A stretch of 64,000 nucleotides of DNA from Candidatus Woesearchaeota archaeon (GTDB lineage Archaea > Nanobdellota > Nanobdellia > Woesearchaeales > JAFGUC01). Shown here piece by piece: positions 45,001-48,000 of this stretch. The DNA lies in contig JAFGUC010000006.1 in assembly GCA_016938695.1 (NCBI GenBank), positions 1 through 64,000 of the forward strand, written 5' to 3'. Each line of letters begins with the position of its first letter. The first letter of the stretch is position 1. Position numbers: made by a program.

Positions 45001-48000
45001 ATTCAAAGAAGAAAAAGGAATTGTTGTTCGAACTTGATTTTTTTATTTTTTAGTTTTCTTTTAATTTAGTTTAATGCTAGTTTTAATTAGAATGGAAATA
45101 ACTTAAGTAAGTAAATATTTTAAAAAAATTTTAAGAAAAATGATTAGGAAGAACCTACTTTCGTGCTCTCTTTCTTTTCTCTTTCTTCATCTTTTTACGT
45201 TGCCATTTCCAACGCATTTGACCTTTCTTTTTCCAACGTCTTGAACTTCTCTTCATTTTTTACTTCCACCATAAATAATTTAATAAAATAAAATGCCGCC
45301 GCCGGGATTCGAACCCGGGTCTTCGGCGCGAAAGGCCGAAATGATTGGCCGGACTACACTACAGCGGCAAATGTAAGTATAATGGGCCTGCCGAGATTTG
45401 AACTCGGGACCACTGGTTTACTTAGTGTGTGAAACGTGGACTTATAAGACCAGCGCTCCAATTGCCCTCAAATGATCCAGGCTAAGCTACAGGCCCGAAT
45501 ACAGCAAAGGAAACTGGGTCTATTTATAAAGTTTTTCGTTTTGTTTATTTTTAAAAACTTTTTTTATTTCAAAAGAAAGAAAATATAAATCATCCCCTTT
45601 TTAAGTCTTTCTATGACGCTAAATATTGATGGTTTAACTGTTGTTGTTGAGGAAAACAGAAAAGTTCTAGATGAGTTTAGTATTAGTTTAGATGATGGTT
45701 CTGTTGCAATAATTTTTGGTCCAAATGGTACTGGAAAATCAACTTTACTTTCTGCAATAGGTGGAATGATTACGCCTCAAAAAGGGAGCATTATTTTTGA
45801 TGGTCATGAATTATTAGATTTGTCTCCAGATAAGCGTTCAAAACTTGGAATTGGATTTGCATTTCAAAATCCTCCTGAAATTATTGGTGTTAAGCTAAGA
45901 GATATTTTTAAGATTTGTTTGAAGAAAAAACTGGATGAACCTTTTAGCGAAGATGAATTTGAGATGATTAAAGAGTTTGATTTAGAACGATTTTTAGATC
46001 GTGATGTAAATCATAATTTTTCCGGTGGAGAAAAAAAACGTGCTGAGATATTACAGATGCTTTTTTTGAAACCTAAATTATTATTATTAGATGAACCTGA
46101 TTCTGGTGTTGATGTTGAGAGTCTTAACTTAATTGGACGTGCTATTAATGCTTATATTCAAGAAACTGGTGCAAGTGCAATAATTATTACTCATCATGGA
46201 GATATGTTCAATTACATTGAGTCAGATATTGCTTATGTTTTATTGGACGGAAAAATAAGATGTTGTGGAAATCCTTGTAAAGTGTTTAATAGAATTACTA
46301 AGGATGGGTATAGTGGATGTCGAGGATGTGATTGCGATGTTGAATAATTTCAAACTTGATTCTAGTTTTTCAAAAGACCTTGAAATGTCTGGTTTTTCTA
46401 TTGATGGAGAATTGAGGACAGGTTCATATATGCTTCAGGATGGTAATCTGATTGGATCAGAAAGTACTCAAGATGGTTTAGAGATTTTGGATATTAAAGA
46501 AGCAATGAAAAAATATTCTTGGGTTCCTGAGTTAATGAATTCTTTGGTTTCAAAAGATAAAGATGAATATACTAAGAGGACCGCAGAAAATTTTGATGGT
46601 GGATATTTTGTTTGGGTCAAGGAAGGTGCAAAAATTGATCTTCCAATGCAATCTTGTTTGATGATTTGTAAACCAAATTATGAGCAACGAGTACATAATA
46701 TCATTGTTCTAGAAAAAGATTCAGAATTAAGAATAATTACTGGGTGTTTGCAACATACAAATAGTTCAGTAACTCACATTGGAATTTCTGAAATTTTTGT
46801 TAGAGAGAATGCTAAATTAAATTTTACAATGGTCCATAATTGGGGCACAGAATCTTTAGTTCGACCTAGAACTGCTGTGAAAATTGATGAAAACGGTGAA
46901 TTTGTTTCAAATTATGTTTTATTAAATCCCGTAAAAGATATTCAGATGAATCCGGTTGCTAAATGTGCAAGAGGGGCAAAAGCAAGTTTTAATGGAATTA
47001 TTTATGCAACAGAAAATTCTAAAATTGATTCTGGTGCGAGAATTGAACTTAATGGAGAAAACAGCAGTGGTGAAATTATTTCACGTGTTGTTTCAACTAA
47101 GGGTTCAAAAGTTTATTCTAGAGGACAATTGATAGGAAATACAAAATCTAAAGCTCATATGGAATGTAATGCAATTATTTTGGAAAAAAATTCCAGTGTG
47201 ATTGCGGTTCCTGAGATTGAGGCAAATGATAATGAAGCTGAGATGAGTCATGAGGCTGCAGTAGGTAAGATTGCAGACAAAGAAATATTTTACTTAATGA
47301 CTAGAGGACTTTCTGAAGATGAAGCCGTATCAACTATTATTCGTGGTTTTATGGATGTAGCAATTTTTGGGTTACCTAAAAATCTTGAAAAACTTATTCA
47401 GAATGTTGTTGATGATGCATCAAAAGGTTTTTGATTATATATATTCCAAAACTTATTTTATTGTATCTAAATGCTTTTATTAATGTTTTACTTTTATTTT
47501 TCTTATGAGTCTTATTGAGAGACTAAAAGATATTAGAATTAGAGTTTCGGATTTGGTGATTAATGACGCTCCGTTAAGTGTAGACCAAGCAGTCTTACGG
47601 TGTTTTGTTTCTGAAAAATTAGCTCGTGAAATGTTAAAGAAGTGTAATGCTCAAGAAATATTTGATTATTCTGATTGCGTTTTAGATGGTTTTTATTTGC
47701 AACGTGGTAGAAAGGGAATTGAAGTGATTGATGATTCGCACCATATAATTTGTCATGAGTATGATGGATTATTTATGGACGAATCAAATGTTTTTTTTTC
47801 GGAAGTGAAATCAACAAGTTTACATGGTTTTACTTATAAAATTCCCCGTGCATTACAATTTGCAGATATGTTTTTTTCAGATTCTGAGTTTTTAATATTT
47901 TATCCTTGTAATGGTTCAAGTAAATCTTATTGTGCACATGAAATTGAAAAAGAGTATCCTAAAATTTCAGTAATTGATTTGGGATATAAACAGAAAGATT

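Follow-up and report, generated by a model that had tools for sequence, protein, structure and literature searches.

Decoding of AUA by an intron-bearing tRNA-Ile(UAU) in TiaS-lacking Woesearchaeales, and a conserved hairpin in its anticodon-loop intron as a candidate self-guide for pseudouridylation

How the isoleucine codon AUA is read in the Woesearchaeales is the question raised by a 114-nt gene on the minus strand (45383..45496) of the window, the whole stretch of 64,000 nucleotides analysed here from a Candidatus Woesearchaeota archaeon (contig JAFGUC010000006.1). An earlier note on this DNA had taken the gene for a tRNA-Ile(UAU) with two introns, an identity that is borne out by the Rfam match, the UAU anticodon, the BHB helices of both introns, and an Ile-type body. 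ARAGORN makes no tRNA call at 45383-45496; the Rfam tRNA model matches these positions on the minus strand (50.8 bits), the alignment showing one insertion in the D loop and another in the anticodon loop.

The exons are assigned to 45496-45477, 45461-45443, and 45418-45383 (minus strand), giving a tRNA of 75 nt once spliced, without an encoded CCA, in place of the 76 nt proposed previously. The UAU anticodon (positions 34-36; 45444..45446, minus strand, reading 45446-45444), placed by the sequence and the Rfam alignment, lies within a 7-nt anticodon loop in the spliced molecule. The anticodon-loop intron, 24 nt long and inserted at 37/38 (45419..45442, minus strand), contains a UAAG (45424-45421) that forms the BHB helix with C32-U33-U34-A35 in four of four pairs, and U at position 34 is thus supported by the intron itself. 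The D-loop intron at 19/20 (45462..45476, minus strand), whose borders had earlier been left as inferred, is set at 15 nt by a central 4-bp BHB helix (G15-C16-C17-U17a with GGGC) and by same-site introns of relatives in which the helix is compensated (GUCU:AGAC in G039, GCCU:AGGC in G466, GUCC:GGAC in L254); lengths of 14 or 16 nt were ruled out since neither yields a helix of 4 bp. By sequence, the spliced body is of the Ile type and unlike Met: 65 of 75 positions are identical to the tRNA-Ile(GAU) of this genome, whereas Met-i shares 41 of 75 and Met-e 50-52 of 76-78.

A TATA-like box (TTTATAAATA; 45521..45530, minus strand), read from the sequence and putative in function, lies approximately 25-34 nt upstream. 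A tRNA-Glu(UUC) gene (45294..45368, minus strand) begins 14 nt downstream and is followed by a T-rich tail, and the two tRNAs are likely to be co-transcribed. The locus is flanked by gltX and a TrmB-like gene on one side and by a divergent sufC-sufB pair on the other. The only splicing endonuclease found in this genome is a single alpha-type EndA of 173 aa, which fits the 19/20 intron awkwardly because, in the accessible part of PMC5829648, the cutting of non-canonical introns is reported only for the (alpha-beta)2 and epsilon2 types.

The genome (1.5 Mb, 30% GC, 99.24% complete, 5.42% contaminated) makes abundant use of the codon in question. In 1,095 ORFs from a crude gene call, 11,790 of the 417,381 codons are ATA, more than the internal ATG codons of the same ORFs (7,379); the abundance noted previously stands, its figure of 10,850 having come from a different gene set. 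The search for CAU tRNAs yielded just Met-i and a Met-e that carries an intron, in a tRNA set that is incomplete (no tRNA-Pro was found either), and the absence of a third CAU tRNA is consequently a weak point when taken from this genome alone. The TiaS_FLD domain (PF08489) was not found here, as had been claimed, and it scores over the cut-off in four of four control archaea. It is very likely that tRNA-Ile(UAU) decodes AUA directly.

The claim that agmatidine decoding has been lost across the whole order is supported as well, and the loss reaches further. The count of TiaS in 0 of 101 order genomes gave way to 1 of 401 in a larger sample (0 of 281 among the high-quality genomes), the order-wide loss itself being upheld. 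The single positive, in G203, was rejected as a genuine TiaS of the order: it is likely misbinned. The 12-kb contig that carries it also holds genes for multiheme cytochrome and for Rieske/cytochrome b, the closest relative of this TiaS (77%) belongs to a MAG titled Methanobacteriota, and the top model match in G203 is the UAU motif. TiaS was detected in 0 of 401 phylum genomes, a sample overlapping that of the order, and in 0 of 283 genomes (0/31, 0/121, and 0/131) of three other small-genome phyla sampled around loci titled Micrarchaeota, Aenigmatarchaeota, and Iainarchaeum. As a control on the search, Elp3 was recovered in 51 of 54 UAU-bearing order genomes.

The tRNA itself, read in only four relatives at the outset, was pursued with a 5'-half pattern, which gave matches in 62 genomes of the 151 from the order, 61 of them UAU and one a CAU of bacterial type, and with an anticodon-region model run on 55 of the 90 genomes that had no UAU match, plus G203. 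The model matched 46 of these 56 genomes, and the 45 genes retrieved were all UAU, such that a UAU gene was read in 105 of the 116 order genomes examined by pattern and model (116 of the 151 pattern-searched); G025, G084, and G022, in which intron-bearing UAU tRNAs had previously been reported, are all among the UAU genomes. The CAU match, in G023, was rejected as an Ile(CAU) of the order: its D loop is of the bacterial type, the contig at whose end it lies is 1.6 kb long, and a UAU gene is present in G023 as well. Two sets of records from elsewhere were likewise set aside: the 'Methanosarcinales'-titled UAU records (0.9-1.4 Mb) have no TiaS, their tRNA is of the type seen in the order, and they were not counted as a euryarchaeal loss, while an Acidilobaceae-titled UAU contig is Nanobsidianus-like in a genome that has TiaS. 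Four archaeal UAU genes (L003, L008, L023, L112) are intronless. Some of the genome counts given here may take in G303, G335, and G501, which are flagged as unpublished, and none of the statements on sequence depends on these three. Decoding of AUA by a UAU tRNA-Ile, together with loss of TiaS, is thus supported throughout the order and beyond it.

Such decoding is an extension of a known kind, because it is already on record for at least five archaea rather than the two species counted earlier. Nanoarchaeum equitans and Korarchaeum cryptofilum possess tRNA-Ile(UAU) without TiaS, according to the parts of PMC8450103, PMC6000648, and PMC3575796 (Table S1) that bear on them, and ARMAN-2, -4, and -5 are described, in the available text of PMC3239211, as having tRNA-Ile(UAU) with neither TiaS nor Ile(CAU), the ARMAN-2 gene carrying a 25-nt intron at 37/38 (Fujishima 2011). 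The present tRNA resembles the tRNA-Ile3(UAU) of these archaea in its anticodon, its Ile(GAU)-like body, its 37/38 intron, and the lack of TiaS; they have no Ile(CAU), and none was found here, but in an incomplete tRNA set. It differs from them in the added 19/20 intron and in the scale, order and phylum, at which the arrangement is seen. In the portions of those papers at hand, the intron is described only as a BHB splicing substrate, with no mention of an exon-pairing hairpin, an ACA, or a wobble modification.

The most unusual feature of the locus, missed by the earlier reading, is a hairpin that the anticodon intron can form with the exon, together with an ACA. In the predicted alternative structure (45426..45460, minus strand), exon positions 20-33 pair with intron +1..+13, C27 is bulged, U34-A35-U36-A37 form the loop, and the ACA follows at intron +15..+17 (45426..45428, minus strand). 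In the general scheme, exon 32-28 is the partner of intron +2..+6 and exon 26-20 that of +7..+13, with base 27 left as a bulge. Every one of the 60 parsed order genes and of the 45 model-found genes has a 37/38 intron (105/105), the truncated gene of G061 having been left unparsed and that of G246, which has an extra anticodon-stem intron, having been left out of the pair counts. In 51 distinct genes with introns of at least 23 nt, 82.0% of the cells of the 12-pair model are paired, against 33.2-48.5% in slid controls; the corresponding values are 75% and 37-42% in the second set, which was found with a model trained on the motif. None of 500 shuffles attains the real paired percentage, covariation score, or number of double-change cells (34 versus 20.2). 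The two measures that kinship inflates least do not stand above the shuffles, 95 and 40 of 500 of which reach them, and the relatives are not independent.

At the level of single positions, G+2 is invariant (59/59 and 45/45), and compensation is located at 30:+4, 26:+7, 25:+8, and 21:+12. Among 141 distinct genes, uncorrected for kinship, C30 occurs with G+4 in 6 of 8 (2 of 133 for the others), A26 with U+7 in 18 of 24, and G21 with C+12 in 43 of 50. The pairs 28:+6 (58%) and 29:+5 (66%) are weak. The exon-side bulge varies, being 1 nt in 43 and 2 nt in 42 of 111 ACA-selected genes, with the intron-side distance constant. Where the lower strand has no exon pairing, it has a partner within the intron instead in 9 of 11 genes (7 of 41 otherwise), and some of these replacements place the ACA and an A-rich linker in the loop. 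Positions +2..+17 are kept across DPANN, Korarchaeia-type, and Asgard records, and the intron is free in length beyond +17 (17-71 nt). Among the Leu tRNAs of the same order, used as a control, 7 of 30 loci are intronless, and the 18 introns (one probably misparsed) show 33% pairing with no ACA and no NCA; a Thr pattern gave matches in only 2 of 101.

Folding places the two structures close together. The unconstrained fold of the full precursor is the hairpin form at -41.4 kcal/mol, against -40.4 kcal/mol for the BHB form, and the probability of the C32:G+2 pair rises from 0.23 to 0.96 when the D intron is removed. The hairpin form is favoured by folding in 39 of 59 relatives and the cloverleaf form in 14 of 59. 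The comparative data point to a conserved hairpin that is very probably functional.

Of the long introns in the two sets, 23 of 52 and 15 of 40 have an ACA at +15 (38/92), with at most 2 at each neighbouring offset; NCA at this position is commoner (37/52 and 23/40), and in the second set 16 of 40 have ANA. Only 26 of 54 genes keep the A that opens the triplet, A still being the commonest base there and C rare (7/54). In this genome, the n+15 spacing relative to U34 given for H/ACA RNAs in the consulted part of PMC7075261 is matched: A+1 is the partner of U33, UAUA makes up the loop, and the ACA starts at base 15, an arrangement that points at U34 and allows U36. Elsewhere, most genes (53/59 and 39/45) have U at intron +1, and U33:+1 is Watson-Crick in only 3 of 59; U33 is thus mostly without a Watson-Crick partner and could be the first unpaired U, which weakens the assignment to U34.

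The motif also occurs in other orders of the class and in records titled Micrarchaeota, Iainarchaeum, and Aenigmatarchaeota, and a scan requiring the ACA retrieved it in Methanodesulfokora, in five similar Thermoproteota- or Nitrososphaerota-titled records, in one Borrarchaeota record, and in two Promethearchaeota records (in L494 and L509 it was read at model coordinates, and L391 rests on the model match). The motif also locates UAU genes that ARAGORN overlooks. The pairing is kept and the ACA is lacking in the 16-18-nt introns of the Nanopusillus type, most Aenigmarchaeota introns have no ACA, and Cbf5 is full-length in both groups. Presence of the ACA does not go together with that of Elp3 outside the order, where many of the genomes are MAGs whose completeness is unknown: Elp3 was detected in 3 of the 9 genomes that have the ACA at +15, in 3 of the 13 whose intron lacks it there, and in 2 of the 4 in which the gene is intronless.

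This genome encodes Cbf5, with DKCLD, TruB, and PUA domains, as well as Nop10, Elp3, and TruD. No separate Pus10 was found, nor was Gar1 (PF04410), for which the model exceeds the cut-off in only two of four control archaea. In H/ACA complexes, as far as the consulted part of PMC7075261 extends, Cbf5 anchors on the ACA and the lower stem with the target U some 15 bases away, pairing on the 3' side of the pocket matters most, an unpaired UVUN takes two pseudouridines when the ACA is present, the most 5' unpaired U is the one modified, and both sides of the pocket are needed in vivo. From the excerpts available of the respective papers, an acceptor-plus-T 'semi-tRNA' that has a flexible link is also a substrate of Cbf5, which prefers ACA to CCA in binding (PMC2018633), H/ACA RNAs undergo self-modification in vivo (PMC11077068), and the intron of the yeast tRNA yields pseudouridine-34/36 and blocks the Elp-made ncm5U34 (PMC11408192).

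Against this background, our balance of judgement tips modestly towards the 37/38 intron serving as a cis-acting, H/ACA-like self-guide, whereby Cbf5 would form pseudouridine-34, and perhaps also pseudouridine-36, as in eukaryotes. The precursor would switch between the hairpin form, with the anticodon looped and the D arm open, and the cloverleaf or BHB form, and the loss of the D-loop intron would tip it towards the hairpin. The PUA domain of Cbf5 would bind the ACA and the lower stem, the n+15 ruler would place U34 in the active site, and the unpaired UAUA could accept a second pseudouridine at U36. Cbf5-Nop10 would act on U34 before splicing, after which the RNA would refold and the single alpha-type EndA would cut the BHB; pseudouridine-34 would then keep Elp3 from making a wobble U that reads AUG. 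The order we infer for the steps that lie beyond sequence comparison is thus fold, modify, refold, and splice.

The same hairpin might serve another enzyme or another site, a reading that we hold to be unlikely: Cbf5 could act on U33 or U36 only, TruD/aPus7 on U36, or an unknown enzyme could measure from a CCA-like NCA on a mimic of the acceptor-plus-T arm. The better conservation of NCA over ANA and the prevalence of U at +1 speak in its favour, as do the presence of TruD and the geometry of the hairpin (5 bp + 7 bp + 1 nt + NCA), which matches a tRNA minihelix; U34-A35-U36-A37 also resembles the Pus7 UN(psi)A motif. It is opposed by the minihelix equivalent of U55, which is U34 again, by the failure to find Pus10 in this genome, and by the first base of the triplet, where A still prevails and C is seldom found.

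That U34 is left unmodified, the hairpin being a folding or timing device that delays the splicing form or hides the precursor from Elp3 or IleRS, is a quite improbable alternative. Mycoplasma mobile does read AUA with an unmodified U34 (PMC3575796, in the part consulted), the two folds are mutually exclusive and close in energy, many genes lack the ACA, and there are archaeal UAU genes that have no intron. Such a device would, however, leave unexplained why the ACA is fixed at +15, why the intron-side distance is constant while the exon bulge varies, and why lost partners are replaced; any shielding would moreover end at splicing, yet Elp3 persists in nearly all of the order genomes searched for it. 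It is very improbable that the complementarity is merely a relic of the origin of the intron, for +2..+17 is kept across distant records while the length beyond it is free, compensatory changes occur at 21, 25, 26, and 30, and nothing similar is seen in Leu introns, even if the exon is nearly invariant, so that much of the pairing is conservation rather than covariation, and the kinship-robust shuffle measures are not exceeded. The weakest alternative treats the gene as a pseudogene or an artefact of assembly and assigns AUA to a tRNA-Ile(CAU) that is missing from the assembly, together with a TiaS so diverged that it escapes detection. It could draw on the incomplete tRNA set and on the use of one domain model (PF08489) for TiaS, and is extremely improbable and already largely refuted by the 105 order genomes with UAU, as opposed to a single CAU gene that is bacterial in type and lies at a contig end, by the pairing of the intron with U34, and by the recovery of Elp3 with the same search tool.

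The proposed self-guide shares with box H/ACA sRNPs, as presented in the consulted part of PMC7075261, a lower stem stacked on the target helix, an ACA just 3' of it, the n+15 spacing, and an unpaired target of the UVUN kind, and a Cbf5 with a PUA domain and Nop10 are encoded here. Guide and target would be one molecule in the present case, whereas a separate RNA acts in trans in the H/ACA system, although the excised intron may also act in trans. Unlike an H/ACA RNA, the element has no upper stem and no two-sided pocket, consisting only of the 3' pocket strand and the lower stem; no K-turn or K-loop was seen by eye in the 24-nt intron or the hairpin; the triplet is NCA rather than ANA; and Gar1 was not found here. 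The intron is accordingly not a member of the H/ACA sRNA family, as it lacks the upper stem and K-turn, and may nevertheless work like one. Sulfolobus sR115, which guides modification of U35 in pre-tRNA-Tyr, is a separate RNA, whereas the element described here lies within the precursor it would target.

Three further systems invite comparison, each on the strength of partial texts. Eukaryotic pre-tRNA-Ile(UAU) acted on by Pus1 (PMC11408192) has the same tRNA, the same intron site, and the same predicted product and purpose, namely to pre-empt Elp3; Pus1 requires the anticodon to be paired with the intron, whereas in the present precursor the anticodon is predicted to lie unpaired in a loop, with Cbf5 as the putative enzyme. 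The box C/D intron of archaeal pre-tRNA-Trp (Cm34 and Um39; PMC11408192) likewise directs modification of its own wobble base, as is predicted here, but it is a long methylation guide that acts in trans in Haloferax, in contrast to a 17-nt H/ACA-like half-guide. In Mycoplasma mobile tRNA-Ile2(UAU) (PMC3575796), UAU similarly replaces a system of modified C34; that case is bacterial with an unmodified U34, and the bacterial UAU genes found in this analysis are intronless.

A broader proposal, tentative and on balance doubtful, is that the intron is a cis H/ACA half-guide and refolding switch with which Cbf5 writes a (psi)A(psi) anticodon, that this arrangement is common to DPANN, Korarchaeia, and Asgard, that AUA is decoded without agmatidine in much of the archaeal tree, and that the intron-dependent pseudouridylation of eukaryotes descends from it. 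The literature searched, at the level of titles and the opening lines of abstracts outside subscription papers, yielded neither a cis ACA hairpin in this intron nor a phylum-wide loss of TiaS, and term look-ups in bioRxiv 10.64898/2026.05.13.725050 and 10.64898/2026.10.13.758758 (main texts) and in PMC11291895 returned no such statement. UAU decoding without TiaS is known and is seen here at phylum scale; the conserved intron hairpin with the ACA at +15 is new as far as the papers searched extend.

Agmatidine has been treated as the archaeal route to AUA with few exceptions, and TiaS is here missing across whole small-genome phyla. The proposed self-guide offers a concrete answer, testable in vitro, to how a tRNA with U34 avoids reading AUG. 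If true, it would make this a tRNA whose intron directs pseudouridylation of the anticodon, provide a natural role for guide-free Cbf5, and be a candidate ancestor of the eukaryotic system.

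Intronless archaeal genes for tRNA-Ile(UAU) were encountered in four sequence records, L003 (from genome G605), L008, L023, and L112. G605, titled Thermoplasmata, encodes the wobble-U-modifying enzyme Elp3, and the search of this genome for the AUA-decoding enzyme TiaS returned no match; its UAU gene thus reflects an independent loss or contamination by a foreign contig. Among L002-L121, records titled Patescibacteria, Ignavibacteria, and Peribacteria also held numerous bacterial genes for UAU tRNAs, none with an intron at 37/38.

The genome under study, whose tRNA-Ile(UAU) bears an intron at 19/20, possesses a single alpha-type splicing endonuclease EndA of 173 aa (C7:193363-193620). 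In its relatives, introns of this tRNA were also seen at 22/23, in the anticodon stem, and in the T arm. Two TruD-family genes were noted as well (C70:267844-268827 and C75:673-1806), one of them on a 3.9-kb contig.

Across the whole genome, tRNA-Pro, tRNA-Ala(GGC), and tRNA-Thr(GGU) were not found; tRNA-Asp(GUC) occurs as two identical copies, on C70 and C17, and the small contig C57 carries a bacterial-type tRNA-Glu. The AGU anticodon, rare in archaeal tRNA-Thr, occurs in this tRNA of the present genome (C17:3056-3127, minus strand) and of G088 (C56:3103-3139). The Thr pattern matched only two of the 101 order genomes, both with AGU.

The intron-bearing tRNA-Tyr (C70:367352-367480; C1-G72, A73), labelled Asn by ARAGORN, has a U-U mismatch in its bulge-helix-bulge helix and a second segment within the intron complementary to the anticodon arm. 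The introns of tRNA-Leu(CAA), inspected at C70:67590-67724 and in L315, L316, L319, L323-L325, and L339-L341, open with a segment antisense to the anticodon, after which comes a CUGA/AUGA box (8/9), a layout shared by the intron of the CAU tRNA Met-e (C20:318552-318682). C34 lies opposite the fifth base upstream of the box, an arrangement that resembles an intron-borne C/D guide for Cm34.
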